From positions 216,028 through 280,027 of the forward strand of contig CAWHIB010000010.1 of assembly GCA_963829265.1 (NCBI GenBank): a stretch of 64,000 nucleotides of DNA. Reading direction: 5' to 3'. Below, piece after piece: positions 7,709 to 64,000 of this stretch. Each line of letters opens with the position of its first letter. The stretch's first letter is position 1. The notes beneath the pieces were generated by a model. The model was given only the letters and a program-made list of their open reading frames with translations. It searched no databases and was not told the DNA's origin. Made by a program: the position numbers and the translations under genes. The stretch is from an uncultured Acidimicrobiaceae bacterium. GTDB taxonomy: Bacteria > Actinomycetota > Acidimicrobiia > Acidimicrobiales > RAAP-2.

Positions 7709-7889
7709 CAGGTGGTGCTCAGTCCGTGCGCTCCACGATCACGTCGAGCCGCACGGTCGGCACCGACCTGGTCGCCATCCCTAAGATCACGGTGCTCACC
7801 GGACGAGAACCGTGGATTGGACAGTGGATGCCCGGAGACGACCTGCGCATCGGCGACACCGTCACCAACCATGCCCGGGCCGGCTACTG

Positions 7890-10371: not shown

Positions 10372-12320
<1,949 letters not shown>

Positions 12321-14286: not shown

Positions 14287-14318
14287 TCAACGCGGGCCCG
14301 GATCCCCGCCGCGTCGGA

Positions 14319-14885: not shown

Positions 14886-14923
14886 GGCCAGAACCTATCC
14901 CGCACCCGGTGCGGGCACCCGGA

Positions 14924-51476: not shown

Positions 51477-52636
51477 GCGGGGCGACCGAGCCGCACCCCC
51501 CGGTCGGGGTCCCCGTCTCGGGTCGGTGCGACCCACGGTTCGCCGCGGTGCGGGACGCATTCCGCGACAACTTCGCCGACCGGGGCGAGGTGGGTGCCGG
51601 GGTGGCCGTCTTCGTCGACGGACTCCCGGTGGTCGACCTGGTCGGCGGGTGGGCCGACGCGGACCGCACCCGCGCCTGGGCGGCCGACACCCTGGTCGAC
51701 GTCTACTCGGTCGGCAAGGCGCTGGTGGCCCTCCTGGCGCTCCAGCTGGTCGACGAGGGCCGGATCGGCCTCGACGACCCGGTCGCCTCGACGTGGCCCG
51801 AGTTCGCGGCAGGCGGCAAGGCGGGCGCCACCGTGCGCCACGCCCTGTGCCACCGGGCGGGCGTCCCCGCCATCCGACAGCCGCTGACCAACGAGGACCT
51901 GTGGGACTGGGACACCATGGCGGCCGCGCTGGCCGCCACCGAGGCGTGGTGGGAGCCGGGGACCCGCCACGCCTACCACACCAACACCTACGGCCACCTG
52001 GTGGGCGAGCTGGTCCGACGGACGGGCGGCGACCTGCCCGGTGACCGGCTGGCGGCACTGGCCGGGCCGCTCGGAGCCGACGTCTGGTGCGGGCTGCCGG
52101 TCCACCAGCAGGCCCGCTGCGCCGAGGTGATCTGGGCGTTCGGCGGCGCGACGCCGGTGGTGGACTACACCGGGATGACGGGCGACGAGTTGATGGTGAA
52201 CATGGGCTACGTGAACCCGCCGGGATACTCCTCGATGGGCGTGGCCAACTCCGCCGAGTGGCGTGCCGCCCAGGTGCCGTCGACCAACACCCACGCCACC
52301 GCGGCCGGCGTGGCCCGGATCTACCGGGCCCTGCTCGACCCGGGTCGACTCGTCTCCGCCGACCTGCTGGCCGAGGCCGTGTCCCCCCAGTCGGTGGGCT
52401 TCTGCCCGGTACTCGGCGAGGAGGTCACCTTCGGGCTCGGGTTCGAGCCGGCCACGCCCCGTCGTCCCTTCGGCCCCAACCCGTCGGCCTTCGGCCACTT
52501 CGGGACCGGCGGTGCCGTGGGCTTCGCCGACCCCGAAGCCGGCATCGCCTTCGGGTACGCCATGAACCACGTGATCCCCCGGTGGCAGTCGAGCCGGAAC
52601 CGGGCCCTGATCGACGCCCTCTACTCCTGCCTCTGA
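51473..52636 (+). CDS. serine hydrolase (beta-lactamase / esterase EstB-like family)
   Basis: ATGA overlap at 51473. The SxxK motif YSVGK is present. It is intact to the stop at 52636 within ORF 49736..52636. Confidence 0.85.
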   Translation: MSGATEPHPPVGVPVSGRCDPRFAAVRDAFRDNFADRGEVGAGVAVFVDGLPVVDLVGGWADADRTRAWAADTLVDVYSVGKALVALLALQLVDEGRIGLDDPVASTWPEFAAGGKAGATVRHALCHRAGVPAIRQPLTNEDLWDWDTMAAALAATEAWWEPGTRHAYHTNTYGHLVGELVRRTGGDLPGDRLAALAGPLGADVWCGLPVHQQARCAEVIWAFGGATPVVDYTGMTGDELMVNMGYVNPPGYSSMGVANSAEWRAAQVPSTNTHATAAGVARIYRALLDPGRLVSADLLAEAVSPQSVGFCPVLGEEVTFGLGFEPATPRRPFGPNPSAFGHFGTGGAVGFADPEAGIAFGYAMNHVIPRWQSSRNRALIDALYSCL

Positions 52637-52865
52637 CCTCCCGGGCCAGTCCCGCCCCATAGGAGCCAGTCCCTTCCACCCCGACTGTCCCGACACGCCC
52701 GAACCCGGCGAGCCACGACAGCAGCGCCGCATAGCCCTCGGGGGTCGCGTCGAAGGACTCGGTGCCGAGCAGTCCGCCTACTTCGTCGAGTGCGGCAGCC
52801 ACGTGGACGTCGCCGTGGGTGTCGATGCCACCAGTGATGCCACGCGCAGCTTCTACGATGGTCAT
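52637..52865 (-). mobile_element. IS110-family transposase, N-terminal (DEDD/RuvC-like) fragment only, 3'-truncated
   Basis: GGAAAGGAAGGG RBS plus ATG at 52865. MTIVEAARGITGGIDTHGDVHVAAALDEVGGLLGTESFDATPEGYAALLSWLAGFGRVGTVGVEGTGSYGAGLAR matches the IS110 N-terminal domain. Similarity ends at the stop codon of the neighbouring hydrolase gene, and the rest of ORF 52425..52865 is read-through. Confidence 0.8.
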
Positions 52866-53201
52866 CGCCCATCCCTTCCTTTCCTTTAGCGGGTTGAGGG
52901 GTGGCTCGGCCGTCCCGGAAAGGAGTGACGGTGCGGGTCGGTCTGCTCGTAACAGAACGACCCATCACCCCCTCTGGAACGGGGCGCGCCGCGCCTCGAC
53001 TCAGTTGGTCCGGAGTACCGACCGACGGGGCGCGGCTGCGGTTGGCAGCCACTGATCTGAAGTCAGGCCGACGACCCCGGTGCATCCGAAATTACAAAGG
53101 ACCAACCATTCGGCGGTGGACCCTCACGGATGCTCAACAACATCATTGGTGGTAGGGGACGGCCGGCCAGGGTCGGAAAGCAGCCGGATACTCCACCTGT
53201 T

Positions 53202-53606
53202 CTAGCCTTGAGGCGCGAAGAACTCGAGTGCGATGTTGTCGGGATCTCGAAATGACAATGCCGAGTAGGAAGTTGCGTCCACGATGCCACCGTTTGGAAT
53301 GCCGAGTTCGTTCAGGCGCACTTCCCACGCTCTCAACTCTTCGCGGTTGGCACAGCCGAAAGCCAGATGATCGAGACCCGGTCGGCGCTCGTTGAACGGC
53401 TGAGTGCTGTTCAAATCAGGAAACTGAGTTAGACCGACGATGGTGCCGCTCGTAAGCCAAGCGACACGCTGGAAAGGACCTAGGTCCTCTTCAAGGATCG
53501 GATCTGAGCCAAACAGCGCCTTGTACCAGGGCACACTTCGATCGAGGCTCGTAACCGTTAGCGCCACGTGAGTAATCGCAGGGAACTCTGCCATGTCTAT
53601 TGGCAC
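53202..53606 (-). CDS. VOC (glyoxalase/bleomycin resistance/dioxygenase) family protein
   Basis: Intact 134-aa ORF with ITHVALTVTSLDRSVPWYKALFG and GLDHLAF. An alternative start lies at 53594. Confidence 0.8.
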   Translation of the reverse strand: MPIDMAEFPAITHVALTVTSLDRSVPWYKALFGSDPILEEDLGPFQRVAWLTSGTIVGLTQFPDLNSTQPFNERRPGLDHLAFGCANREELRAWEVRLNELGIPNGGIVDATSYSALSFRDPDNIALEFFAPQG

Positions 53607-53673
53607 CTCTCTTGGCCGGCACCTCTGTGGGAGTACAAGCTATCTGGCGTCACACGTTCCCGCTCTGGATGAT

Positions 53674-53699
53674 GCCCCGCTCCCATTGTTGTGGGACAC
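53674..53699 (+). repeat. island repeat copy (variant)
   Basis: GCCCCGCTCCCATTGTTGTGGGACAC. The stem TCCCA/TGGGA shows compensatory changes relative to the consensus. Confidence 0.7.
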
Positions 53700-53921
53700 G
53701 CAGGCCGGAGTTCACCGCCACCAGATGATCGACCAGAAGACTGCACTCAGGACCCGTCCTACTCGGCGGATGAGGCGAGCATCCTGTTCAGGAGTGCGCA
53801 TCGCTCAGTAGGCAAGTGGGCTGTTGTCGGCATTCACCGTCCGTGTATCGGAAGTTGCGCCGCCACCCTTGACCACCAGTCGATTCGTTGGCAATGGTGA
53901 TCTCTGGCCGCCGGTAGGGCG

Positions 53922-53952
53922 GCGCGCCACTCTCCCAGCGGTGTGGAGCAGG
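53922..53952 (+). repeat. island repeat copy (variant)
   Basis: GCGCGCCACTCTCCCAGCGGTGTGGAGCAGG, with stem CTCC/GGAG. It abuts the kinase stop codon. Confidence 0.55.
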
Positions 53953-53954
53953 GG

Positions 53955-54494
53955 TCAGTGATCCAGCGCATAGGTTTCGATCCACGTGGCAACCGCTCCA
54001 ATGTCGACGGGTCCCGTGGTGTCAACCTCGACCAAGAGGGCATTCGGCAAGTCCAGCGGAGTCGGTACGTCGTTCATCCACCGCTCGATGACCTGGTCAC
54101 TCTGATGCTCAGGGAGGTGACCAGGATGCCTGCCTAGATCGTCGATGCGCCTGCGGTATCGCTCCGCAGCAACGTCGACGGGGCATCGACAGTAGATCTG
54201 TGCGATCCGCCGATTGAGAGCCTGTAGTTCGGTTTCGGCGATTCCTCGCCGGAAGTGGGCTTCGAGAATCACTTGCGGAATCTTTGCCGCCAAGGAGTAC
54301 ATGACAACGTGGCCCGCCCGGCCCAGTCGTTGAGACCACTCCAAGTCTCCGGTTCCGAGGGCGTCAAAGAGAGCTTCCTTGACGACATCCTTGGAGATGA
54401 GAGGCCATCCAAGTTGAGTGCTGAGTGCAGTCGCCAAGGTCGTCTTGCCCGAGGCAGGAATGCCTGTGACGACAACCACCACGTCCTCATCCAT
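53955..54494 (-). CDS. P-loop kinase-like AAA family ATPase
   Basis: Intact 179-aa ORF with Walker A VTGIPASGKTTLA. Its size and layout resemble small-molecule or nucleotide kinases. Confidence 0.7.
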   Translation of the reverse strand: MDEDVVVVVTGIPASGKTTLATALSTQLGWPLISKDVVKEALFDALGTGDLEWSQRLGRAGHVVMYSLAAKIPQVILEAHFRRGIAETELQALNRRIAQIYCRCPVDVAAERYRRRIDDLGRHPGHLPEHQSDQVIERWMNDVPTPLDLPNALLVEVDTTGPVDIGAVATWIETYALDH

Positions 54495-54534
54495 CCCATG
54501 ATCATGGCAGCTGGAATGCCTCGCTCGACTGGGA

Positions 54535-54565
54535 GTGCGCCCCGCTCCCGGCGATCGGGGGCACC
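54535..54565 (+). repeat. island repeat copy (consensus-like)
   Basis: GTGCGCCCCGCTCCCGGCGATCGGGGGCACC. Confidence 0.9.
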
Positions 54566-54717
54566 TTGAATTGAATAGCGAGGCGGCGCGGGGTGCTGGC
54601 CGAAATCATCCATGAGAGCGGAACTTGGTTCGCTACTCCTATTCCGATCGCACTCCTGTTGGACTTGGAGCACTCATCGGATCCCTCTGGACCCGGCGTC
54701 GTGAGCAGGAAAGGTAG

Positions 54718-54743
54718 CCGCTCACCGGGCGATCGGGGGCAGC
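54718..54743 (+). repeat. island repeat copy (5'-divergent)
   Basis: CCGCTCACCGGGCGATCGGGGGCAGC, lying 14 nt upstream of the ECF sigma ORF. Confidence 0.75.
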
Positions 54744-54756
54744 GCCCTGAGGCGAC

Positions 54757-55336
54757 GTGACACACTTTCCGTTGAGCGGTCATATACAGAGTGTGAACAG
54801 ATGGACGGACCAGTCGGACGCCGAGTTGTTGGTCCTCGACGACCCTGACGCCTTCGCCGAGCTCTACGACCGACACGTAGGCCAGATCCTCGCCTGGTCG
54901 AGGGCCCGGGTGGGTGACTATGACGCCGATCTGACCGCCGAGGTCTTTGCGGCGGCGTGGCATAGCCGAAAGCGCTTCCGAGACCTGCATGATGGCTCTG
55001 CACTTCCGTGGCTCTATGGCATCGCTCACAATCTGTTTCGGTCATCGCTGCGCAAGCGCAGGGTCGAGTACGGCGCTCGGGAGCGTCTGGGTCTCCCGAT
55101 CACCGTCATGCATGCCGACTTGGAGGCCGTGGACGACCGCTTGTCGTTTCCCTCGGCCGTCCTTCGAGCAGTCGCGGACCTCCCTGACTCGGAGCGCGAG
55201 CTACTGGTTCTGCGCTTGGTCGAGGAACAGCCCTATAAGGAGATCGCCCAGCACCTCCAATGCACTCCTGTCGCAGCCCGCCTGCCGCGTCTCTCGATCG
55301 CTTCGACGTCTCCATCTCGCCCTAGGAGGGTTCTGA
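54757..55336 (+). CDS. ECF-type RNA polymerase sigma-70 factor, probable frameshift in region 4
   Basis: Region 2 is FAELYDRHVGQILAWSRARVGDYDADLTAEVFAAAW and region 4 is LPDSERELLVLRLVEEQPYKEIAQHLQCTPVAAR. The recognition-helix continuation RVSRSLRRLHLAL lies in the +1 frame (ORF 54947..55336), with a switch near 55275. Confidence 0.75.
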
Positions 55337-55337
55337 C

Positions 55338-56141
55338 ATGACCATGCTTCCTGAACTCGAGTCATACCGCCACGAGCTGCGCGCAGCCGTCGAGGCGGAT
55401 CTGGTTAGCCAACGAGATCGCCGGCGCCATCTCCGGCGAGCGGTTGCGATCGGCACCCCGGCAGTGCTGTCCGCGTTTGGTCTCAGCCTCGCTCTCGTGC
55501 TCGGAGGTGGAGGTAAGCCGAGTTCTGCGGACGCAGCGATACTCACATCCGCACAAAGCGCGCTCACCCCTCCGCCCAATACCGTGTTTCACGTCGCGGC
55601 CTCGATCGCTGTGGGGTCGAGTCCGGGCCAGCACTACGAACTGTGGACCGCTGGTTCCTCGTATCGGTTCATCAAGTTCGGCTACGAGGCTGCGTGGAAC
55701 GGATCGACGATGTCCAGCTATGACGCCGCTACCAACACGATGTACGTCGGGATCTACAGCCCTCAGAACCACGGGCCGGTCGACACCGCCGCCGCCATCC
55801 GCTCCCTCATCGCGTCAGGCCAGGCGCAAGTCGCTGGTTCGGCAGTCGTCGACGGGGTCCCCGCCTACGTCTTGTCATTGTCAGGTCAACCTTCTGGCAG
55901 TGGGCTTGCCAATGCGACCTATGACGTGGCCAAGAGCGACTACCACCCGCTGCTCATTCAGGGGATGACGGTGTGTCAGCAGGGACCGTGCTCAGAGACC
56001 GTCCAGTTCCAGACCTACGAGTACCTGCCCGAAAGTCCCGCCAATCTCTCCCTGCTCGATCTGAGGGCACAACACCCAGGGGCGACCGTGGTGAATGCAA
56101 ACGGAGTCCCCGGTGTCGGGACCTCGTTCGGTAGCGATTGA
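55338..56141 (+). CDS. single-pass membrane protein downstream of the ECF sigma (putative anti-sigma/partner)
   Basis: GGAGGG RBS plus ATG at 55338. It has a cytoplasmic helix, a TM segment (AVAIGTPAVLSAFGLSLALVLGG) and an extracytoplasmic beta-rich domain. There is no recognisable zinc anti-sigma motif. Confidence 0.6.
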   Translation: MTMLPELESYRHELRAAVEADLVSQRDRRRHLRRAVAIGTPAVLSAFGLSLALVLGGGGKPSSADAAILTSAQSALTPPPNTVFHVAASIAVGSSPGQHYELWTAGSSYRFIKFGYEAAWNGSTMSSYDAATNTMYVGIYSPQNHGPVDTAAAIRSLIASGQAQVAGSAVVDGVPAYVLSLSGQPSGSGLANATYDVAKSDYHPLLIQGMTVCQQGPCSETVQFQTYEYLPESPANLSLLDLRAQHPGATVVNANGVPGVGTSFGSD

Positions 56142-56180
56142 TTTAGCCTCCACGTCTGGGTCGGTCGGATCGCTAGGTAT

Positions 56181-56208
56181 GGCTCCCAGAGCCGGTGCGG
56201 GGGCAGTC
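56181..56208 (+). repeat. island repeat copy (long-loop variant)
   Basis: GGCTCCCAGAGCCGGTGCGGGGGCAGTC, with stem GCTCCC/GGGGGC. Confidence 0.65.
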
Positions 56209-56904
56209 TCAGACTCGCCTAAGGCAGGTGTATGCCCCGTAGGCGGACCGGACGAACGACCGATCAACGACCTCAAAGCCGACCTTGTCGAGCATCCGCT
56301 CGAAGAGCCAGCTATACGTACTGAACTCGCCTCGAATGTGCGCAGCAAGTTCACTCGCGGTGAAGCCAACGGCGGGGTCCGATACCGCTCCGCCCATCCA
56401 CGCTTCGATCCTTTCGTCCGCCTCCGACGGGTCGAAGTCGAAGATCAGGTCGCGGATCCGGGCGATCCCACCAGGCCGGAGCATCGAAGCCATGCGTTCC
56501 AGCGCAGCGACCTTCCAGTAATCCGGCAACTGGTGGAGAGCGTTCCGGGTAAAGATCACATCCGCGTGGTCCCTTTGCTGCTCGAAGCTCAGGAAACCCG
56601 CATGGACGACGCTCACATTCGTCACCCCGAGTTCGCTGGCCTTGCGGCGAAGGAACTCAACCATGGCGCTGGAAATGTCGACGGCGAAGACCTCATTGCA
56701 GTACCGAGACGCCGCAAACGAGAAGGCACCCGTGCCAGCGCCAAGGTCGATCACGACTGAGTGCTCGCTCATGCCCGCAGCGAGGAGGAGGTCGATGTCC
56801 TCAGTCGGATCGAACTGAGCCTTTCTGTCGTAGGTGGCGACGTAGTCAGCCTGCAGGTGTTCAGCGCCTGCGTACAGCTGCTCATCTGGGTGCCAGGACT
56901 CCAT
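56209..56904 (-). CDS. class I SAM-dependent methyltransferase
   Basis: Lies within ORF 56209..56970 from M23 (MESWHPDEQ). Motif I is VIDLGAGTG. Confidence 0.8.
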   Translation of the reverse strand: MESWHPDEQLYAGAEHLQADYVATYDRKAQFDPTEDIDLLLAAGMSEHSVVIDLGAGTGAFSFAASRYCNEVFAVDISSAMVEFLRRKASELGVTNVSVVHAGFLSFEQQRDHADVIFTRNALHQLPDYWKVAALERMASMLRPGGIARIRDLIFDFDPSEADERIEAWMGGAVSDPAVGFTASELAAHIRGEFSTYSWLFERMLDKVGFEVVDRSFVRSAYGAYTCLRRV

Positions 56905-56934
56905 GAGGCCGATTGTCTCAGAGTTCACCGCCCA

Positions 56935-56974
56935 GTGAGTGCCGCCCCGCTCCCGGCATGGGGCAGGCACTCAC
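56935..56974 (+). repeat. island repeat copy with extra perfect 9-bp outer inverted repeat
   Basis: GTGAGTGCC-GCCCCGCTCCCGGCATGGGGCA-GGCACTCAC. Confidence 0.9.
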
Positions 56975-57192
56975 CGGTCCGCTTGGTCGGTGAGATCACT
57001 CAGAATCGCAGCCCGTTTCCTTGCCTCGTGTGAGGCCAGTTCCACTGGATCACCGAACGAAGTGACGGCCTTGATGTGAACGGATGAACCCTGCTCGAGC
57101 CAGAGCTGGACATCGTCCACGTGGTGGACGTTTGGCTTTGAGGCGTCAGTCATCCCACCCTCTGATGGCAGCTCAGAGTCGGAGGTCGCCAT
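56971..57192 (-). CDS. hypothetical small acidic protein (73 aa)
   Basis: Intact ORF between two island repeats. I recognised no family. Confidence 0.4.
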   Translation of the reverse strand: MATSDSELPSEGGMTDASKPNVHHVDDVQLWLEQGSSVHIKAVTSFGDPVELASHEARKRAAILSDLTDQADR

Positions 57193-57230
57193 CTACGAAT
57201 CATGTCACCGTCCAGCATCCCGGATGTTCA

Positions 57231-57267
57231 GGAGTGTGCCGCACTCCCGGTGATATGGGGCAGTCAT
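57231..57267 (+). repeat. island repeat copy (variant with alternative 5' hairpin)
   Basis: GGAGTGTGCCGCACTCCCGGTGATATGGGGCAGTCA. Confidence 0.8.
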
Positions 57268-57282
57268 GGCGGACGGCAAGCC

Positions 57283-57633
57283 CTATTGAACGGAAACCTT
57301 CCCGCCCATTTCGGTCACCTTGCCACGGCGGAGCGGAAATACCTTGGTCAACAGTCGGAAGCCCGCATCAAGGCCTGGGACCTTGGCGAAGGCACCCTGC
57401 GGACCGAGGGTCATGCGACCCGTCGAGACGTCGTACTTTGCGCCGTGCCAGGGGCATACAAGGCAACCCTCTTCATCGAGTGAACCTTCAGCGAGATCGG
57501 CGCGAAGGTGGCGGCAACGCCGACTCACAGCGAATAGTTCGCCTCCGGAGTTCCCCACGGCATAGTGGCCTGCGCCTCGAATGACGCCGGGTTGCAGTTC
57601 CGCAACGGTTCCCACTTCGACTTCTTCACTCAT
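57283..57633 (-). CDS. Rieske (2Fe-2S) domain protein
   Basis: GGGAGGG RBS plus ATG at 57633 (MSEEVEVG). The cluster ligands are CRH...CPWHG. Confidence 0.85.
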   Translation of the reverse strand: MSEEVEVGTVAELQPGVIRGAGHYAVGNSGGELFAVSRRCRHLRADLAEGSLDEEGCLVCPWHGAKYDVSTGRMTLGPQGAFAKVPGLDAGFRLLTKVFPLRRGKVTEMGGKVSVQ

Positions 57634-57778
57634 GGTGACCCTCCCGGTCCCTGTCAGAACCTTAGGCACACATGGAGCCCAATGTCTCTAAGTGCTCAAT
57701 CCAGGTGGTTCGGGACGCCCGGTACGAGCCGGAATAGTTCGGTTGCCGTTGTTCCGCTGTCTCGCGTAGCTTGTGCGT

Positions 57779-58147
57779 ATGTCGAACATACGTTTGGGAT
57801 CCATAGCGCTGGATTGTGCCGACCCGGGCCAGCTCAGCACCTTCTGGGCTGACTTGCTCGGAGGCGAGGTTGCATTTTCTAATGAGGATTTTGCCGCCGT
57901 GAAGATTGATCGAATGTGGCTGGCCGCCACTCGGGTCGAGGCCTACGCGGCTCCGACGTGGCCGGAGGGCCTGGTGCCCAAACAGGTGCACCTTGACTTG
58001 GCTGTCGATGATCTTGACCTCGCTGAGGAGCGGGCAACTTCGCTCGGTGCCGTTCGAGCGGAGACGCAGCCGGCACCCAACCGCTACCTCGTGCTGATTG
58101 ATCCTGCCGGTCACCCATTCTGCTTGTCGACGCAGATTCCCGATTGA
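57779..58147 (+). CDS. VOC family protein (glyoxalase-like domain)
   Basis: MSNIRLGSIALDCADPGQLSTFWADLLGG ... HLDLAVDDLD ... IDPAGHPFCL. It is divergent from the Rieske gene. Confidence 0.8.
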   Translation: MSNIRLGSIALDCADPGQLSTFWADLLGGEVAFSNEDFAAVKIDRMWLAATRVEAYAAPTWPEGLVPKQVHLDLAVDDLDLAEERATSLGAVRAETQPAPNRYLVLIDPAGHPFCLSTQIPD

Positions 58148-58174
58148 TCGTTGACCACACCCGTTCGCCGATGT

Positions 58175-58200
58175 CTCACCGACCCATTGTAGGGGGCAGG
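58175..58200 (+). repeat. island repeat copy (variant)
   Basis: CTCACCGACCCATTGTAGGGGGCAGG. It resembles both the 54718 and the 53674 copies. Confidence 0.6.
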
Positions 58201-58203
58201 GGG

Positions 58204-58452
58204 TCAGATCGGTTCGCCGGTCCAACGTGGCCCGTCCTCGGTGACCCACACTTTCGTGTGAGGCAACACCTTCATCAGGGCGAGAGGGGCGGAGTCCGAG
58301 TCGGTTCGAGCGAAGTCGGCGGGCTCTAGGAGAAAGACCTCCTCGGTCGAGTCGATAGTGACGGCACGTCGGCAGCCGTGAATGTCGAACCGAGCGAGTA
58401 CGGCGAGAACATCCCTCCGAGCGAGTGGATTCATTGACCAGAGGGTAGCCAC
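58204..58452 (-). CDS. hypothetical small protein (76-82 aa)
   Basis: Intact ORF with an alternative start MNPLARRD at 58434. I recognised no family. Confidence 0.4.
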   Translation of the reverse strand: MATLWSMNPLARRDVLAVLARFDIHGCRRAVTIDSTEEVFLLEPADFARTDSDSAPLALMKVLPHTKVWVTEDGPRWTGEPI

Positions 58453-58477
58453 AAGGACCGGGCCACCTCATCTGCCT

Positions 58478-58506
58478 GCTCCGCCTAACCGGTGTCAGGG
58501 GACAGC
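58478..58506 (+). repeat. island repeat copy (weak variant)
   Basis: GCTCCGCCTAACCGGTGTCAGGGGACAGC. Confidence 0.4.
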
Positions 58507-58548
58507 AGCGGACGCCGCCGAGTCACCGATCGATCGGACGTGCGATTT

Positions 58549-58587
58549 GGCCACCCGCCAGCACTAGCTGTTCACCGACGGGTGGCC
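58549..58587 (-). terminator. stem-loop 10 nt downstream of the repeat-protein stop codon (candidate intrinsic terminator)
   Basis: GGCCACCCG ... CGGGTGGCC forms a 9-bp perfect stem, with an inner CAGC/GCTG pairing. There is no clear U-tract. Confidence 0.35.
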
Positions 58588-58596
58588 AAGCAACAC

Positions 58597-59943
58597 TCAG
58601 ACGGAGATGCCCACGACGTCGGTGACAGAGACGCCGTCTCCAGGAAGACTTCCGTAGTACGGAACATTGAAGGCGAAGATGCCACCGTCATTGGCGATCA
58701 GCCAGTAACCGGTGCCTGCCGAGTTGGCTGCCATGCCGACGATCGGTTGGTTCAGCGAGATGTTGCCCGTCGAGCCGTGGAATCCTGCATTCCCGTAGGC
58801 GAAAATTCCGCCGTCGGACGCCACGAACCAGTAGCCCTGGCCATTGGGGGTCGGCGTCATCCCGACAACCGGCTTGTTGAGGTTGATGTTCCCGGTGGAT
58901 CCCAAGAACGGCGCATTCCCGAACACGAAGATCCCGCCGTCGGACGCCACGAGCCAGTAGCCCCCCGTGGGGTTGGGTGCCATGCCGACAATCGGCTTGT
59001 TCAGCGTGGCCCCACCCATCGAGCCTCGGAACGCCGCATCACCGAACGCGAAGATTCCTCCGTCCGAGGCCACCAGCCAGTAGCCCTTGCCGTCGGAGGT
59101 CGCGGCCATCCCGACGATGGGTCTGTTGAGCACGATGTTCCCGGTCGAGCCGTAGAAGCCGGTGTCGCCGAAGCTGAAGATGCCGCCGTCGGACGCAACC
59201 ATCCAGTACCCGCCACCGTCGGCCGTCTGGGCCATGCCGACGATCGGCTTGTTCAGCGGGGTGGCGGACAGGTCGCCCAGATAGGTCAGAAAGGCGTCGT
59301 TCCCGTACGGGCTGAGGAGGCCGTTCGACTCGTAGGAGTAGTAGCCCTGGTGCGGGGTCGACGGGGTGATGTTGTACCCGAGGGCTCCCCAGACGAGACT
59401 GAACCCGTCACTCGAGGCGCAGGTGAACCGGATGCCGTAGGAGTTGACCGAGGGACCGCTCGTCGTCAACTGGTCGAACTCGAACGAACCGCTCCCCTGC
59501 AGGACGCCGACGCTGTAATTGCCGGCACTGCAGCTGCTGAAGTTGCCAGTGATGCCGAGAGTGAGCTGAGCGGAGGTCTGGTAGACGACCCCCGGCACCA
59601 ACGGCTGTCCCGTCTGGTTGCTTATGCCGACGTTCACGAGGCTGCCTGAACTGTGGACACGAATCGAGAACTCTCCGGGCGACGAAGCGGTGGAGCCGAG
59701 GTCCTCGACCGAACCAGGGTCGTACACGGAGTCCCCGTACGCATCGACGGTCTGGATCCAGCCGGTGCTCATCGGCGGCACAGTGTTGTGCGTCACCGGG
59801 TGCCGGCCGTCGGTGGTCGCCACCGCATGGGGAACGAGGCTAACGGGATGGGACGAGGCTCCTGCCGTGCTTCCGCCGAGAATAAGGAGGGTCATCGGAA
59901 CGGCGGCCGCGCACAGGATCCGCCCGATGGTGTGAGTTCGCAT
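58597..59943 (-). CDS. secreted protein with six tandem repeats of about 41 aa (GYWLVASDGGIFAFG-type), probable beta-propeller
   Basis: The signal peptide starts at M16 (MRTHTIGRILCAAAVPMTLLILGGSTAGASS). The C-terminal half has repeats G-Y-W-[LMF]-V-A-S-D-G-G-I-F-x-[FY]-G-x-A-x-F-x-G-S-x-G-x-x-x-L-N-x-P-[IV]-V-G-M. Confidence 0.75.
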   Translation of the reverse strand: MRTHTIGRILCAAAVPMTLLILGGSTAGASSHPVSLVPHAVATTDGRHPVTHNTVPPMSTGWIQTVDAYGDSVYDPGSVEDLGSTASSPGEFSIRVHSSGSLVNVGISNQTGQPLVPGVVYQTSAQLTLGITGNFSSCSAGNYSVGVLQGSGSFEFDQLTTSGPSVNSYGIRFTCASSDGFSLVWGALGYNITPSTPHQGYYSYESNGLLSPYGNDAFLTYLGDLSATPLNKPIVGMAQTADGGGYWMVASDGGIFSFGDTGFYGSTGNIVLNRPIVGMAATSDGKGYWLVASDGGIFAFGDAAFRGSMGGATLNKPIVGMAPNPTGGYWLVASDGGIFVFGNAPFLGSTGNINLNKPVVGMTPTPNGQGYWFVASDGGIFAYGNAGFHGSTGNISLNQPIVGMAANSAGTGYWLIANDGGIFAFNVPYYGSLPGDGVSVTDVVGISV

Positions 59944-60294
59944 GGCGGCACAGTAGCCAATCCCAGGAACGAGTGAGTGACCGTTCATGCAAGAACTCTT
60001 CGGATCAGACCTATCGGTGATTTAACAGCGTCTCAACCGACGTCCGGTGGCGCGGAACAAGCTTCGTGGGACTTTTGGACGTCTTGCATTCTCCACCACG
60101 AAATGCAATGGCCATGAGGATTGTCTGTCCTCCGGGGGATGTGCGGTGGAATCGAAGCTCCAGGGACGACCTACCTCGATCCACCGATTGAACGGGTGAT
60201 CTGAAGGCCGCGCATCCGCGGAAAGTGCCTCCCTGCCTGGGAAAATAGCGGTGTCGAAGACACTGATTCACACCAGAACCAGGAGGCACTTCCA

Positions 60295-61629
60295 GTGGGT
60301 TCATCATCGCGCAGCATCGACCGGATTGCCGTGACCTTCGACGAGCCCACGTTGGTGGCCGACGCCGGGCTGGTGGTGCCGGCCACCCTCATGGTCCGCC
60401 TGGGCCTGGAGTCCCTCGTGAACCAGATGGTGCGGCTGCGTGGCCGTGTCGGTGGAGCTCATCCCGGCCGCAAGGTGCTGACGCTGGTGACGGCGATCCT
60501 GGCCGGGGCATCCCACATCGACCACGCCGATCGACTGCGGGCCGGGGCGACCGGCCGGGTGCTGCCCTTCCGGGTGATGGCCCCGTCCACGTTGGGCACG
60601 TTCCTGCGGTCGTTCACCTTCGGCCACGTCCGCCAGCTGGACGCGGTGATCGCCGAGACGATCCGAGGGCGTGGTCGCTCGGGGCCGGTCCGGGGAACGA
60701 GGCCATGACCATCGACCTCGACTCGACCATCGTCGAGGTCCACGGCAAGCAGAAGCATGGTGCCGCGTTTGGCTACACCAGGGTGCTCGGCTACCACCCC
60801 CTCCTCGCCACCCGGGCGGGAACCGGCGAGGTGCTCCACGCCCGCCTGCGCAAGGGCTCCTCCCAGCGGGGCACCAAGCGCTTCTGCGAGGAACTCATCG
60901 CCCGGGTGCGGCGGGCCGGGGCCAGCGGCGCCCTCACCCTCCGGGCCGACTCGGGGTTCTTCAGCTGGGACCTGCTCGCCATCCTCGACCGGCTCTCGGT
61001 GACCTGGTCGATCACCGTGCACCAGAATGCCAGCGTGCAGGCGGTGATCGCCGCCATTCCCGAGGATGCCTGGGTGCGACATCACCTACCCGGACGGCGG
61101 TGCCGCCCAGGTGGCGGAGACCATTTACGTGACCGGTGGAGGCAAGACCAAGCGGGCCGAGCGTCGGGTCCGCCTGGTCGTTCGCCGCACCCGGCTCACC
61201 GATCGGGTGCAGCGACAGCTCTGGCCCGACTGGCGTCACCACGCCTTTGTGACCAACCTCGAACTGGATGCGGTCGAGGCCGACCGGTTCCACCGGGCCC
61301 ACGCCACCGTCGAGCTCGCCATCCGGGATCTGAAGGAAGGAGCCGGCCTCGAGCACTGCCCGTCAGGGCGGTTCTTCGCCAACGCCGCATGGCTCGGGTG
61401 CGCGGTGCTCGCCCACAATCTGATTCGCTGGACCGCTTCCCTCGGCGGAGTCCACACCGACGATCGGCTGACGGTCGCCTCGACGGTCCGCTTCCGGATG
61501 CTCACCGTTCCTGGGCGCCTCGTCCATCCTGGTGGCCGACCCGTCCTCCGTCTTCCCGAACGCTGGCCATGGGCGCAGTCGTTCACCACCGCCTTGTCGA
61601 ACCTGCGTGCCCTGCCGCTCGTCACCTGA
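60295..61629 (+). mobile_element. IS1380-family DDE transposase, two frameshifts (decayed copy); element ends not defined
   Basis: ORF 60295..60708 has IAVTFDEPTLVADAGLVVPATLMVRLGLE. ORF 60705.. has MTIDLDSTIVEVHGKQKHGAAFGYTRVLGYHPLLA and LRADSGFF. ORF 61066..61629 has HHAFVTNL...ADRFHRAHATVELAIRDLKEGAGLEHCPSGRFFANAAWL. The frame switches near 60700 and 61075. Confidence 0.8.
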
Positions 61630-62387
61630 GCAACGACCCCGTGGCTGGCGCAGCCGCAGACGACTTCACCCGTGCGCTGACAACCGACGACCATCACGAG
61701 GCCTTGGGCGATCACGTCCTCGATCGGCTGCGCCCTGCCAGCTTGGACGTAATCAATGCCGCCTCAGGTGAGCGTGCCACTCCTGCAGTCGGTCGGTGGA
61801 AGTGGTTGGTGGTTCTTGGATTCGTCACCGGCACGATTGGCGGAATCGTGATCGCACAGGCGCTGTCGACGCCAGGCCAAGGAACATTTCCCTATGCCAT
61901 AGGAATCGTGGTGATGCTGAGGTGCGTCGGGTTGGTGGTAGTAGCAAGGGTCTTCCACCGACGTGCTCACGGGCTTTAGTTCGGGGGTGCGCCGGACACC
62001 GCAGCTAGGACTCCATGGGTCCTGCAAGTGGCAGAGCGGGGCAGCTCGTGGAGGGCAAGCGGACATGTCCATGGGGTACCGCCGTGCCGGTGTTTGGGGA
62101 GATGTTGCTCTGGCTCGCTCCATCGGATCCCTGCCAAGGAAGCCGGGCCTGGGCGTGAGAGCCGCATGGATGAGCCATCTCTGAGCGGCAGTGGACAGAG
62201 CAGAATTCTCAGCCAATTCCAAGGTTTGTAATCCAAAAGTAACATGTGTTTCAGCCCCGTCACATTTGAACTCGAAATGTCACGAATACATGAGGCGATT
62301 CTTACCGATCCTTCATTCTGGCGTCATGTTCGGTGTCCAGAATGGAGTTGAAAGGAGAACGCAAGCCTCGCCGACGGTGCTTGTTAA

Positions 62388-62741
62388 ATGGATATGTCCA
62401 CTGCATTCGTTATCACTATCCCTCTAATGCTCCTCGCAGTTGGGGTGGCCGTAGCCCCGGTACTCGTGGTGAGCATCCGTGAGCATCGACTCTCGACGGG
62501 GCAGCGTTCACGGCACGAGGTGTCTGCACCTCGTGTACCTGCTCGGACCTCTCCATCGGTGGTCGAACAAGACGCCGAAGCCCGAGCTGCTGTCATTGTG
62601 TTGGAGGAAGCGACGATTGCAGTCAATCGTCTGCGGGCCCGACGGGACGGAGCGACCAATGCGGACGTCGATGAGAGCCTCCGCCTAGCAAGCGTTGACC
62701 TGCGCCGTGCATTGGTTTCGCTCGGAGACGTGGGCCGCTAG
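62388..62741 (+). CDS. hypothetical small membrane protein (117 aa)
   Basis: It has an N-terminal TM segment (FVITIPLMLLAVGVAVAPVLVV) and a helical C-terminus. An AGGAG-like sequence (aaaggagaa) lies upstream at 62351-62359. Confidence 0.45.
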   Translation: MDMSTAFVITIPLMLLAVGVAVAPVLVVSIREHRLSTGQRSRHEVSAPRVPARTSPSVVEQDAEARAAVIVLEEATIAVNRLRARRDGATNADVDESLRLASVDLRRALVSLGDVGR

Positions 62742-62940
62742 TCGGATGAGGTGCTTGACGCCTACATCTCAACAGTGCACCGAGTGGAGGACGGCAATGC
62801 CGTCTCCCGCCTCTAGCTTTCGAGGATCCACAGTCGCGGTGCCGTCGCTCAGAGCGGAACGGCAGCCACGGTAGTCGGGTATGGCAGATGTGCCGGTCGA
62901 CGGCGGTTAGCCCCTGGCAAGCGCGACCCAGTCGATACCG

Positions 62941-62966
62941 CCGCCGTCCCGGCGATCGGGGGCACC
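62941..62966 (+). repeat. island repeat copy (consensus-like)
   Basis: CCGCCGTCCCGGCGATCGGGGGCACC. Confidence 0.9.
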
Positions 62967-62982
62967 CTTTCCGGGCCTTCCG

Positions 62983-63459
62983 TTGGGCGTCCAGACGTGG
63001 TCTGATCTAGAGATGATCAGGGACTTGGCTGAATCGGAAGCAGGGTGGGCGGCCCCGCTGGCGGGGTTCGATGTCATCGAGGTCAACTTCAGCGGTGCGA
63101 TCTATGTCACCGCCTACGGGAAACGTGCTGAGGACGAGAAGCAAGCCCCGAGTACGACGATCACGCTGGGGGGAGCCTTCGGTCTCGTCGATCGATCTGG
63201 TGTCGATCACAGGCTGAGTGCGGAGGACCCGTGGGAAACGCTGACACCGCTCTTTTCTCTGCGGCACGACACAATCGAATCAGCGATTGCCGATCGAAAC
63301 GGGTGGCTGGTGGTGAAGTTCGACAGTGGTGCGACGCTGGAAGCTGGACCCGTCGGCGGGTATGAGAACTGGCAGATCTCGGGTCCGGGCGGAATCCTGA
63401 TCGTCGGCCTGCCGAGAGGCGGCGAACCGGCTGTTTGGCGTGCAGTGAAAGAAGACTGA
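62983..63459 (+). CDS. hypothetical protein (158 aa)
   Basis: Intact ORF with a TTG start at 62983, or ATG at 63013. It is bounded on both sides by island repeats. Confidence 0.5.
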   Translation: MGVQTWSDLEMIRDLAESEAGWAAPLAGFDVIEVNFSGAIYVTAYGKRAEDEKQAPSTTITLGGAFGLVDRSGVDHRLSAEDPWETLTPLFSLRHDTIESAIADRNGWLVVKFDSGATLEAGPVGGYENWQISGPGGILIVGLPRGGEPAVWRAVKED

Positions 63460-63469
63460 GCATCTGGCC

Positions 63470-63497
63470 GCACCCCGTCCCGGCGATCAAGGGCACC
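63470..63497 (+). repeat. island repeat copy
   Basis: GCACCCCGTCCCGGCGATCAAGGGCACC. Confidence 0.85.
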
Positions 63498-63544
63498 TAA
63501 TCGGCGAGGAGGTGGTACCCGATCGCTAGTGGCTCTTCGCCAGC

Positions 63545-63850
63545 TCAGGTACCGAGGTGATGGTGTGCCACCAACTCGATCCAAGTGATGCTTGACGGCG
63601 GACCGGCGATGCCTCCCTTGGCCAGCGCTTCCCCAAGGCGGCCCTCCATGAATCGGGCCTGGTGTTCAGGTGTATCCCAGACCTCGATCACGACGAGATG
63701 TCCGGCCTCGTTCAACCCGGCCGAATGTGCTACCAGTCCATCGGGCCAGTTCCCCTCACCGCTTTCGGGGTCAATGCCCAACTCCTTGTTGACGGCGTGA
63801 TACTCCGCCAACGTGACACCTTCGAATTCCAGGATCAGTTCAGCAGCCAT
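63545..63850 (-). CDS. hypothetical small protein, possibly ferredoxin-like (ABM/Dabb-type) fold
   Basis: Intact 101-aa ORF (MAAELILEFEGVTLAEYHAVNKELG...VIEVWDTPEHQARFMEGRL). The fold assignment is a guess. Confidence 0.45.
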   Translation of the reverse strand: MAAELILEFEGVTLAEYHAVNKELGIDPESGEGNWPDGLVAHSAGLNEAGHLVVIEVWDTPEHQARFMEGRLGEALAKGGIAGPPSSITWIELVAHHHLGT

Positions 63851-63975
63851 TGGCTTCCGCCTTCCATGCTCGTAGCCCCTCAGCTCACCCGCTTAGCCTG
63901 GCAGGTCCGCCACGGACCTGCCACCAGATTCGGGCCTCAGTCAGGCAATGTGTCCATCAGCCACGATCGACGGCC

Positions 63976-64000
63976 GATCCCGCTCCCGGTGATCGGAGGC
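63976..64000 (+). repeat. island repeat copy (cut by window end)
   Basis: GATCCCGCTCCCGGTGATCGGAGGC. Confidence 0.8.

Follow-up and report, generated by a model that had tools for sequence, protein, structure and literature searches.

What are the short GC-rich repeats that divide a low-GC island of an Acidimicrobiales genome into small gene units, and what moves these units? The window, the whole stretch of 64,000 nucleotides that was analysed, joins core DNA of 72% GC to an island of 61% GC, and related arrays are likewise low-GC islands (59-66%) within genomes of 71-74% GC. The initial annotation had listed 12 positions of the repeat, all on one strand, intergenic, not noticed in the core, and delimiting units of 0-2 genes in both orientations. 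A recognisable copy was found at 12/12 of these positions, and two further copies (anchors 53146 and 62087) and a deleted remnant (54744-54770) bring the family to 14 copies plus one remnant. All copies lie on the plus strand, between ORFs and within 53.1-64.0 kb, and the description of the units was equally sound. Site 14 is cut by the window end, and therefore the array runs on beyond 64 kb. The features are, from left to right:

52645-53145, minus: truncated IS110-family element (Pfam DEDD_Tnp_IS110, E=1.9e-7; blastn to intact IS110 in loci L040, L110 and L029)
53137-53162, plus: site 1, anchor 53146; TTGG instead of CCGG, IS110 end replacing the left arm
53202-53606, minus: VOC/glyoxalase family cassette gene, 134 aa (Pfam PF00903)
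53674-53699, plus: site 2, anchor 53683; decayed core, CCAT for CCGG
53926-53951, plus: site 3, anchor 53935; decayed, CCAG core and GGAG for GGGG
53955-54494, minus: AAA_33/CPT-like P-loop kinase cassette gene, 179 aa (Pfam)
54539-54564, plus: site 4, anchor 54548; canonical, 19.5 bits
54717-54742, plus: site 5, anchor 54726; CGGG core, 13.1 bits
54744-54770: putative deleted remnant site after site 5, from the L029 alignment
54757-56141, plus: two-gene cassette, ECF sigma factor 54757-55341 (Pfam Sigma70_r2/r4) and 267-aa partner 55338-56141
56183-56207, plus: site 6, anchor 56192; right half with 1-nt deletion
56209-56905, minus: SAM-dependent methyltransferase cassette gene (Pfam Methyltransf_25, E=7e-19)
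56944-56966, plus: site 7, anchor 56953; 2-nt deletion
56971-57192, minus: 73-aa orphan cassette gene (ORF only, no Pfam match)
57238-57263, plus: site 8, anchor 57247; 20.2 bits
57283-58147: two-gene cassette, Rieske [2Fe-2S] 57283-57669 (minus) and Glyoxalase_6 57773-58147 (plus) (Pfam)
58175-58199, plus: site 9, anchor 58184; decayed, CCAT core and 1-nt deletion
58204-58452, minus: 82-aa orphan cassette gene (ORF)
58480-58505, plus: site 10, anchor 58489; 11.8 bits
58597-59988, minus: secreted protein gene, 463 aa, five internal repeats of 126 nt
60295-61629, plus: IS1380-type (DDE_Tnp_1_4) transposase pseudogene in three frames, inside a long cassette interval (Pfam)
62078-62103, plus: site 11, anchor 62087; weak, 7.4 bits
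62388-62741, plus: 117-aa orphan cassette gene (ORF)
62940-62965, plus: site 12, anchor 62949; 20.6 bits
62983-63459, plus: DUF6188 cassette gene, 158 aa (Pfam PF19686, E=2e-14)
63471-63496, plus: site 13, anchor 63480; 16.2 bits
63545-63850, minus: 101-aa orphan cassette gene (ORF)
63977-64000, plus: site 14, anchor 63986; incomplete at the window end

The logo of 97 unique related sites defines a conserved asymmetric element of ~26 bp with the consensus C-N-C-N-N-W-C-CCGG-YGWT-MK-GGGRCA. With the first C of CCGG numbered as position 0, a weakly conserved 5' arm (C at -7, C at -5, W at -2 and C at -1) precedes an invariant CCGG and a strongly conserved 3' part (YGWT-MK-GGGRCA). Even the decayed site 3 matches conserved positions -7, -5, -2, -1, 0, 1, 3-5, 7, 10, 11 and 13-16. 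With 3 or fewer mismatches allowed, the strict pattern CTCCCGGYGATCGGGGGCA has 5 matches against 0.27 expected. At a threshold of 10 bits, a profile built from the 97 sites matches 7 times in the 11.4-kb island and 0 times in the 52.6-kb core; unrelated GC-rich DNA (718 kb) has ~5 non-seeded matches.

C predominates in the left part of the site and G in the right part, so that short stems can always be drawn, and the repeats had been described as hairpins whose pairing is conserved. That the sites are folded single strands of attC or REP type, recognised by structure on plus-strand DNA or transcript, would also agree with their strict orientation within arrays and with the one copy that folds significantly better than shuffled sequence (56936-56970, containing site 7; z = -2.87), but this reading is very unlikely. 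Column composition explains the pairing frequency among the 97 sites in every register tested, with no covariation in any, and for the register originally proposed the observed total was reached by 832/1000 shuffles. Position -2 is T or A, with C in 1/97 sites, yet it stands opposite an invariant G. DNA folding of the 13 complete window copies (mean z-score about -0.25) is no better than that of shuffled sequence, and their minimum-energy structures vary from copy to copy. The sites measure ~26 nt versus roughly 55-141 nt for attC and contain no RYYYAAC/GTTRRRY boxes, an Rfam search gave no match at the window repeats, no RAYT was seen, and the core holds 0 copies. Moreover, the two 'arms' are parts of different cassettes, because the crossover falls between them (below), and are therefore unable to co-evolve as attC arms do. 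The variants once seen as compensatory (TCCCA/TGGGA and others) are decayed copies and do not speak for a conserved structure, and a G.U wobble or ssDNA argument for the single orientation is unneeded, since integrative recombination at asymmetric sites gives the same result. As no structure-defined hairpin is present, REP-like and attC-like anatomy are both inapplicable; of the initial annotation's cassette array of hairpin repeats matching no described class, the array stands and the hairpins do not.

Window cassettes recur in other Acidimicrobiales genomes with 84-87% identity and in different contexts, among related arrays sampled as pieces of 8-20 kb, most of which come from MAGs and metagenome contigs. 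The VOC cassette, which includes the right half of site 1 (TGGTAGGGGAC), shows this same linkage and 84-86% identity among the window, L063, L029, L096 and L167 in differing contexts, and the sigma/partner cassette matches positions 4865-3437 of L029 with 87% identity over 1432 nt. In both cases homology stops at the flanking sites: for example, the left arm of site 6 (GCTCCCAGAGCCGG) is common to L029 while the right halves differ, and site 2 is the positional homologue of the L063 site at 3249. The break falls inside the repeat, from -4 to +5 around the invariant CCGG, so that the 5' arm moves with the left cassette and the remainder with the right one. Pairs of sites sharing only their right flank (n=7) show background identity up to -1, except for the conserved C at -7, and are identical from ~0 to +2 onward, variable positions +4, +6, +8 and +9 included; pairs sharing only their left flank (n=8) are identical up to -5 and fall off after +4. 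Some of these 7 + 8 pairs are non-independent, and HSP boundaries cluster in agreement with them.

Gain and loss of modules at repeat boundaries, which had been put forward as a check of the initial annotation, was found in relatives as both insertion/absence and duplication polymorphisms. The VOC cassette lies directly at the recombinase-proximal site in L167, and a site-bounded 2.7 kb intervenes in L029; L139 and L140 share a recombinase-side arm followed by different first cassettes; and in L142 a 426-bp cassette segment, beginning exactly at CCGG|CGTT, is duplicated with 98.4% identity in mirror orientation on either side of the recombinase. The 95 cassettes delimited have a median length of 673 bp, and across related arrays they encode glyoxalase, GNAT, APH, CPT and HAD proteins, as environmental integron cassettes typically do. 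In 8 kb of L063 alone, the profile detects at least 11 sites, and inspection by eye gives ~13.

The intergenic position of the motif, often at stop codons, and its strong sequence conservation would also suit a regulatory or termination signal, with shuffling arising incidentally when short repeats undergo homologous recombination. We regard this as highly improbable: the motif stays on one strand whichever way the flanking genes face (37 co-oriented, 44 opposite), is missing from the core genome, and has neither a T-tract nor a stable stem; breakpoints are limited to ~9 nt of a conserved block of 17 nt; and the link of the motif to a recombinase gene is close and directional.

This gene encodes a 303-aa Xer-like tyrosine recombinase that adjoins related arrays and has the catalytic R-K-H-R-H-Y residues. 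Its closest solved structure is XerD (1a0p, E=7.7e-16). Assignment to IntI, XerC or XerD was rejected on scores far under the curated cut-offs (35 bits against 265 for the IntI model TIGR02249; 114 vs 335 and 110 vs 330 bits for the XerC/XerD equivalogs). Among 22 array-bearing loci seeded by the site pattern alone, four contain the recombinase; conversely, sites occur on 52/66 metagenome contigs seeded by the recombinase alone (99 sites in 265 kb versus a background of ~0.008 per kb). Sites upstream of the recombinase are in minus orientation (36 vs 2 plus) and those downstream in plus orientation (52 vs 9 minus), a rule also followed by L188-L190, with exceptions at 9/61 downstream sites and in loci L048, L138, L154 and L181. 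The arrays on the two sides of the recombinase are thus mirror images. A recombinase at the array end, for which the initial annotation had proposed to look, is therefore present in related loci; within the 64-kb window there is none, which bears out the reported lack of an integrase.

In its stead, the window array begins with the truncated IS110 element, of which the 5' non-coding end and ~73 initial transposase codons (52647-52865) are left. The fragment joins core DNA ~10 nt past the stop codon of a serine-hydrolase gene, and by end alignment it borders directly, at its outer end, on the right half of site 1. Homology of the window to relative L191 ends at 52638, close relatives have sbcDC at the position of the island, and relatives with 92% nucleotide identity have no island between the serine-hydrolase gene and sbcD. 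The window array is an orphan or displaced one, in which a truncated IS110 fused to core DNA replaces the recombinase-proximal end.

Could IS110-family (DEDD, bridge-RNA type) recombinases, with the sites as their targets or substrates, move the cassettes instead of the tyrosine recombinase? Their transposases occur in 4/22 related array-bearing loci, besides the window fragment, and the ends of these elements border exactly on site halves (..CCGGYGA on the left flank, GATC/GTAC-GGGG.. on the right). However, each of these copies is a separate insertion whose ends are conserved in their own right, as expected of a site-targeting parasite, a behaviour already known from IS1111-type elements at attC sites. 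IS110 is lacking from most arrays, IS-end sequence is absent from cassette junctions, and the link to the tyrosine recombinase, with its orientation rule, is far stronger, which makes an IS110-driven system very unlikely.

We therefore favour, with a probability of about 0.75, the interpretation that the repeats serve as core recombination sites in a gene-cassette system of integron-like type in Acidimicrobiales. By its association with the sites, the dedicated 303-aa recombinase would be the catalyst of cassette movement, swapping strands at or around CCGG, probably on duplex DNA and not on a folded single strand. Each cassette unit [YGWT..GGGRCA - one or two genes - C.C..WC-CCGG] would be excised as a circular intermediate with one reconstituted site, and the circle could re-insert at any other site, which would produce same-orientation arrays. 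As cassette genes lie in both orientations, they presumably have their own promoters. Our literature search found no description of such a system, and an integron-like platform with its own Xer-like recombinase is apparently undescribed. Acidimicrobiales belong to the Actinobacteria, a phylum from which integrons are reported to be essentially absent (PMC9024848).

In place of REP elements, which had been named as the nearest analogue, the closest counterpart is an integron-type platform with a simple dif/loxP-like core site and an Xer-like tyrosine recombinase. As in integrons, small and mostly single-gene cassettes (here median ~0.7 kb) lie between same-orientation sites, each site is divided between neighbouring cassettes, cassettes are common to and reshuffled among genomes, the array locus encodes a tyrosine recombinase, and most of the contents are orphans and small enzymes of detoxification or modification; arrays with no recombinase beside them recall CALINs. 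The targeting of the sites by IS110-family elements parallels that of attC by IS1111. Unlike in integrons, the recombinase is nearer to XerC/XerD than to IntI, the ~26-bp sites are simple and conserved in sequence whereas the 55-141-nt attC hairpins are conserved in structure, crossover is at a central CCGG and not at G|TT near one end, and arrays flank the recombinase on both sides in mirror orientation. Cassette genes face both ways without bias and so cannot be driven from a single Pc promoter.

Xer/dif-exploiting elements (IMEX) and the pdif modules of Acinetobacter plasmids share the Xer-like tyrosine recombinase fold and short simple sites (~26-30 bp) with a central crossover region bounding gene modules. 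In contrast to both, the recombinase here is well under XerC/XerD cut-offs and encoded inside the element, arrays are long, and the site is GC-rich and asymmetric; pdif sites alternate, whereas those within an array here are in direct orientation. To our knowledge the site is unlike actinobacterial dif sites, and its weakly conserved left arm differs from textbook two-armed core sites. REP elements likewise are short, rich in GC and intergenic and have a degree of dyad symmetry, but they occur genome-wide, often as inverted pairs, in association with a Y1 HUH transposase (RAYT, TnpA_REP); the present copies are array-confined, in one orientation, without structural conservation or a nearby RAYT, and bound mobile cassettes. 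Tycheposons and SCC-type composite islands also combine tandem units, repeated att-type sequences and a site-specific recombinase acting in trans, but their units are kilobase-scale, sit at tRNA or orfX targets and often have their own recombinase, whereas here the units are single-gene, no tRNA is involved, and one recombinase module lies between two arrays.

The GC content of the window is about 72% up to roughly 52.6 kb and about 61% from there to the window end, and it is in this island that the repeats lie. When the sequence between 53.4 and 64.0 kb was read and the 12 positions proposed by the initial annotation were extracted, a recognisable motif was found at each of them. Allowing up to 3 mismatches, the strict pattern CTCCCGGYGATCGGGGGCA matched 5 times against 0.27 expected, always on the + strand and between 54.5 and 63.5 kb. 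A site profile built from 97 related sites had, at 10 bits or more, 7 matches in the 11.4-kb island and 0 in the 52.6-kb core (about 5 non-seeded matches in 718 kb of unrelated GC-rich DNA), in agreement with the earlier remark that no copy had been noticed in the core. Further copies were recognised at anchors 53146 and 62087 (the anchor being the first C of the CCGG core), together with a deleted remnant at 54744-54770, giving a window total of 14 sites and one remnant, the last site being cut at the window end. All 14 sites are on the + strand and each lies between ORFs, as had been described, and the ORFs and Pfam matches between them bear out the division into modules, here called cassettes, with 0-2 genes in either orientation.

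Genes of the window cassettes by strand (5 on +, 8 on -)
Minus strand (-): VOC protein; P-loop kinase; methyltransferase; 73-aa, 82-aa and 101-aa orphans
+ strand: ECF sigma factor with its partner; 117-aa orphan; DUF6188 protein
Mixed strands in one cassette: Rieske protein (-) and Glyoxalase_6 protein (+)
Single long interval: 463-aa repeat protein and IS1380-type pseudogene

Some individual features of the window array may be recorded here. The remnant is that of a second site directly 3' of site 5 (anchor 54726): where the related locus L029 has GCCCCTGGTTGTGAGGTGACGGGACAC, the window has GCGCCC-TGAGGCGACGTGACAC, which implies a small deletion. Window sites 53683 and 58184 have in common the core variant CCATTGT instead of CCGGYGA; such sites may be inactivated, locking cassettes in place, or may form a compatible sub-class that recombines only with itself. 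The 463-aa ORF (-) contains five tandem coding repeats of 123-126 nt (58669-59263, motif GYW..ASDGGIF.FG.A.F.GS) and an N-terminal signal-like segment, and related repeats are found in two loci from elsewhere (L067 and L047). The IS1380-type (DDE_Tnp_1_4) transposase gene, in the region 60175-61629, is broken into three frames, and just upstream of it 60175-60294 matches the actinobacterial sRNA family Ms_IGR-7 of Rfam at 40 bits, below the gathering score of 45; this match is probably the IS end.

The family had been proposed as a hairpin whose arms CTCCC/GGGGG pair. We aligned 97 sites, no two of them identical, taken from the window and from related loci and anchored on the invariant CCGG. 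Their information content is strongly asymmetric: the left arm is weakly conserved, at -7 (C), -5 (C), -2 (T/A) and -1 (C) only, and the right part is strongly conserved, positions 0 to +16 being nearly fixed (CCGG Y G W T M K G G G R C A S). The resulting conserved block of about 26 nt (C.C..WC-CCGG-YGWT-MK-GGGRCA) contains no AAC/GTT boxes in the 97-site logo, and the earlier statement that attC core sites are absent stands. Pairing was assessed for the proposed stem (i+j=10), neighbouring registers, an outer TGCCCC/GGGGCA stem and a symmetric 30-bp palindrome on CCGG; in each scheme, the fraction of pairable cells equalled the value obtained after permuting right halves among the 97 sites, and in the proposed register the observed total was reached in 832 of 1000 shuffles. 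Position -2 is C in 1 of the 97 sites and otherwise T or A, although it faces an invariant G. RNAalifold on 28 near-canonical copies returned only four invariant pairs (a 4-bp stem), and folding of the 13 window copies as single-stranded DNA gave z values from +1.29 to -2.87 (mean about -0.25), with only the copy at 56936 folding significantly and minimum-energy folds varying between copies. An Rfam E-value scan of 50-64 kb had no match at the repeats. With no covariation and shuffles doing equally well, it is sequence rather than structure that is conserved, and the conserved hairpin is rejected. The C-rich left part and the G-rich right part make it possible to draw stems, and these are not evidence of selection for structure. 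REP elements, previously considered the nearest analogue, are spread through intergenic DNA genome-wide and are imperfect palindromes with a stable stem-loop, whereas the present sites are restricted to the island (0 in the core versus 7) and have neither covariation nor a mean folding z that departs from that of shuffled sequence. REP elements are also associated with a RAYT transposase (Y1, IS200/IS605-like); none was present among the window ORFs or in the 25 most frequent of the 58 Pfam families matched by 78 cassette ORFs.

When 185,579 species genomes were searched for TCCCGGYGATCGGGGGCA, at least 119 loci matched. Most of these were chance coding matches, notably in purL; examples are the PVIGGNVSLYNE motif of PurL and an '..IPAIGG..' motif, and such matches were set aside after inspection of the flanks. 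Among the matches listed, at least about 22 loci had flanks that also matched and additional, degenerate copies of the motif on that strand, and these came nearly all from uncultured Acidimicrobiaceae or Acidimicrobiales MAGs. In the locus L063, the profile detects at least 11 copies within an 8-kb block, and about 13 can be recognised by eye; they lie on a single strand at intervals of 400-700 bp, and each unit has one gene. The related arrays are known as 8-20-kb pieces of MAGs and metagenome contigs. In the profile scan the sites were concentrated in arrays, and the core loci of Acidimicrobiia MAGs gave only the purL chance match; the repeat is a sequence-defined, asymmetric site confined to arrays. 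Array loci have a GC content of 59-66%, versus 71-74% for core loci of the same kind of MAG, and all Acidimicrobiia arrays are low-GC. This bears on the possibility that the GC break of the window stems from a chimeric contig: one MAG (MFD09222.bin.2.119) supplies both a core locus of 71.5% GC and an array locus of 61.9% GC, so the break is normal for the system and a chimeric join is rejected. The window core gene next to the island has orthologues at 80-94% identity, annotated as Acidimicrobiales.

Comparison of the window with the related loci by blastn revealed two cassettes common to other genomes. For the VOC cassette (53148-53699), identity is 84% to L063 and 86% to L029 and L096; for the sigma/partner cassette (54748-56176), L029 matches at 87% over 1432 nt. 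In both cases the neighbours are unrelated and homology stops at the flanking repeats. In junction alignments, the 5' arm through CCGG belongs with the left cassette (for example GCTCCCAGAG-CCGG in the window and L029) and the sequence after CCGG with the right cassette. Accordingly, the unusual right half GGTA(G/T)GGGA(T/C) is linked to the VOC cassette in five contexts, and L029 and L096 are identical rightward of CCGGCGGTATGGG and unrelated leftward. Crossover positions were mapped on few pairs of sites. Those alike in the right flank only (n=7) have background identity up to -1, except for the conserved C at -7, and are identical from about 0 to +2 onward, including the variable positions +4, +6, +8 and +9; those alike in the left flank only (n=8) are identical to -5 and partly so from -4 to -1, falling after +4. 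The ends of the blastn blocks agree with this picture. Exchange thus falls between about -4 and +5, with the invariant CCGG at its centre, and a staggered cut with a 6-8-bp overlap would fit these breakpoints. Since the conserved block spans 17 nt and the range of exchange is far shorter, site-specific recombination is more likely than homologous recombination.

Gain and loss of modules at repeat boundaries is also seen among relatives, and these polymorphisms support the mobility of cassettes. In L167 the VOC cassette lies directly at the site proximal to the recombinase described below, and at that same position L029 has an extra 2.7 kb, bounded by sites and including the sigma cassette. Two further loci (L139 and L140) have a common recombinase-side arm and different first cassettes. 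In L142, a 426-bp cassette segment is duplicated (98.4% identity; 9348-9771 and 11539-11964) on either side of the recombinase in mirror orientation, the duplication beginning exactly at CCGG|CGTT. Cassettes of this system thus move between contexts.

When the ORFs of the array loci were clustered, two proteins recurred as neighbours: an IS110-family transposase, and a 303-aa protein with Phage_integrase and Phage_int_SAM_1 domains (L017, 2851-3762), in the sequence of which the catalytic residues R-K-H-R-H-Y are visible. Its nearest solved relatives are XerD (1a0p, E=7.7e-16) and a XerC-like protein, and the match to IntI4 (2a3v) covers the last 60 residues only (E=0.0023). All NCBIfam scores are well below cut-off.

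NCBIfam scores of the 303-aa protein of L017, with the highest score of related proteins or the range of scores
XerC: 114 bits (related proteins to 126); cut-off 335
XerD: 110 bits (related proteins to 123); cut-off 330
XerA: 101 bits (related proteins to 110); cut-off 220
XerS: 27-38 bits; cut-off 267
Integron integrase TIGR02249: 35 bits (related proteins to 46); cut-off 265
NF011946: 25-34 bits; cut-off 435

Judged by these scores, the protein is a Xer-like recombinase in a family of its own. More than 4000 protein clusters (90% identity) match it at E <= 1e-30, and the best 120 of them, at 78% identity or more, are named only 'XerD' or 'tyrosine-type recombinase/integrase'. As an independent test, we picked metagenome contigs by the recombinase protein alone (n=68, mostly from peat and soil). 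The flanks of 52 of 66 close homologues carried at least one site (9 bits or more), placing a recombinase at the end of related arrays, and the 99 sites in 265 kb correspond to 0.37 per kb, versus a background of about 0.008 per kb. With the recombinase set to +, upstream sites were 36 '-' versus 2 '+' and downstream sites 52 '+' versus 9 '-', a pattern repeated in three 20-kb genome contexts. The sites are therefore linked strongly and directionally to one recombinase family, whose module lies between two mirror-image arrays, both module ends being 5' arms. In most loci the module also contains a conserved ORF of 166-171 aa, convergent to the recombinase and with no Pfam or NCBIfam match (L017 3759-4274 (-); L188 10920-11420; L190 10909-11412), which could encode an accessory or directionality factor. 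Where it is present, the first downstream site lies about 550 bp past the recombinase stop codon; a subgroup at 77-83% identity is without it, and there a site overlaps the stop codon.

No integrase had been noticed in the window, and none is found among its ORFs and Pfam matches. The array starts with a truncated IS110 element (52645-53145, -), of which only the N-terminal DEDD part is kept and whose outer end abuts the right half of site 1; intact relatives (L040, L091) have both DEDD_Tnp_IS110 and Transposase_20. Like this fragment, which conforms to the site-specific insertion without inverted repeats of the IS110 family, the intact copies in L040 (2083-3598), L110 (198-1707) and L029 (6204-6549) lie inside cassette sites, and the latter three are flanked by ..CCGGYGA on the left and GATC/GTAC-GGGG.. 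on the right. These IS110 elements therefore target cassette sites and appear to be site-targeting parasites of the cassette system. There is a precedent in IS1111-type elements, whose targets are attC sites.

At its other end, the IS fragment of the window joins core DNA about 10 nt past the stop codon of a serine-hydrolase gene. In relatives at 92% nucleotide identity over 3.4 kb, this gene is followed by sbcD-sbcC (compared junctions: window 52636-52650; L191 3489-3566; L192 8029-8116; L193 11089-11188), so the whole island is absent from that position in close relatives; in the window it takes the place of sbcD-sbcC. A pre-existing attB was considered and rejected, since the empty hydrolase-sbcD intergenic region of the relatives holds no site-like sequence; the left boundary of the window island is thus an IS110-associated truncation rather than a junction formed by integration. 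The orientation rule predicts a recombinase to the left of a + array; that of the window was probably lost together with the remainder of the IS110, and the array would then be an orphan of the CALIN-like kind. Alternatively, it may lie beyond 64 kb, in a minority arrangement.

The 95 non-redundant cassette intervals have a median length of 673 bp (interquartile range 477-954 bp), and their longest ORF is co-oriented with the site in 37 and opposite in 44. Many ORFs are orphans; the Pfam matches of 78 ORFs, to 58 families, include glyoxalase/bleomycin-resistance proteins (4), chloramphenicol-phosphotransferase-like proteins (2), GNAT (2 to 4), APH (2) and HAD (2), and single matches including enoyl-CoA hydratase, PMSR, LOG, ankyrin, amidohydrolase, isochorismatase and SnoaL. 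In size and content these resemble environmental integron cassettes, and differ from them in having no orientation bias.

A mechanism can be proposed from the sequence comparisons. The recombinase would bind the left arm less tightly than the strongly conserved right part, and would carry out strand exchange around CCGG. The substrate would be duplex DNA, because there is no structural signal and the two arms belong to different cassettes. Cassettes would be excised as circles with one reconstituted site and inserted at any site on either side of the recombinase module, and they would carry their own promoters. More speculatively, the mirror layout might have arisen from a circular recombinase module, with two weak arms at its junction, integrated into a two-strong-arm target, as the palindromic CCGG core would allow.

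Single genes are, by textbook account, captured and reshuffled by integrons, and the present system works like one of these, in that it forms arrays of same-orientation, site-bounded cassettes that are mobile between contexts. Yet it fails the tests of membership. Integrons have an IntI-type integrase with its specific extra domain, whereas the 303-aa protein scores 35-46 bits with its relatives against TIGR02249 and aligns with IntI4 over the C-terminal 60 residues; attC sites are 55-141 nt long, with R''-L''...L'-R' boxes (RYYYAAC / GTTRRRY), and are folded hairpins of conserved structure and variable sequence, whereas here a site of about 26 nt is conserved in sequence and folds as shuffles do; and integron cassettes mostly lack promoters and share one orientation, their expression being driven from Pc beside attI, in contrast to the 37 versus 44 found here. 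The crossover is also central, and the arrays are two-sided. Nor is the system of the REP/RAYT type; Xer/dif elements (IMEX, pdif modules) use a host XerC/XerD or XerS/H/A orthologue, unlike a recombinase below the XerC, XerD, XerA and XerS cut-offs, and their site resembles the host dif (11-6-11 bp) at the replication terminus, the site described here being asymmetric, with strong conservation in its right part only; and tRNA-derived att sites, as in tRNA-based tandem islands, are ruled out by the absence of tRNA and tmRNA genes from the window.

We rate this as an integron-type cassette platform built from different parts. A more far-reaching reading, at a probability of roughly 0.6, is that it is an independently evolved analogue of integrons specific to Acidimicrobiales and related Actinomycetota, with a conserved Xer-like module between mirror arrays, promoter-bearing cassettes and a duplex CCGG site of about 26 bp, widespread in soil and peat metagenomes (more than 4000 clusters). 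If so, it fills the niche held by integrons in Proteobacteria, with its own site-targeting IS110 parasites. A second platform, with a different tyrosine recombinase and a simple, sequence-defined site, would show that cassette systems arose repeatedly in evolution. It would give access to a large and uncharted reservoir of mobile genes in the Acidimicrobiales that abound in soil and peat, including glyoxalase/bleomycin-type, GNAT, APH and chloramphenicol-phosphotransferase-like enzymes; would account for low-GC hypervariable islands and thousands of 'XerD' labels in MAGs; and would offer a compact site of about 26 bp and a 303-aa recombinase as a candidate recombination tool for high-GC Gram-positive hosts. 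Integrons are reported to be essentially missing from Actinobacteria, with no complete integron, one In0 and few CALINs (IntegronFinder 2.0, PMC9024848). Our literature search, which included the site sequence, found no description of the system, and the 'attC-like' motif of DUF1874 (PMC5737381) is unrelated.

Two observations on the recombinase loci may be added. A conserved leader precedes the recombinase start codon (GTGTTCGCTG-TCTTCCTC-GACAC-AAGGAGGAAGA-ATG; L017 2800-2853 and about 14 other loci) and includes a CU-rich stretch able to pair with the Shine-Dalgarno sequence, with a matching variant in L142 (GGTTCTCC/GGAGAACC); this pairing may provide translational control of the recombinase. 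One recombinase locus, L188 on a 4.1-Mb contig, also encodes within 10 kb a relaxase of the TrwC type, a reverse transcriptase and two other tyrosine recombinases that form a pair (intervals 1-1700, 7299-8144 and 13647-16006), and its array may thus lie inside a larger mobile region.
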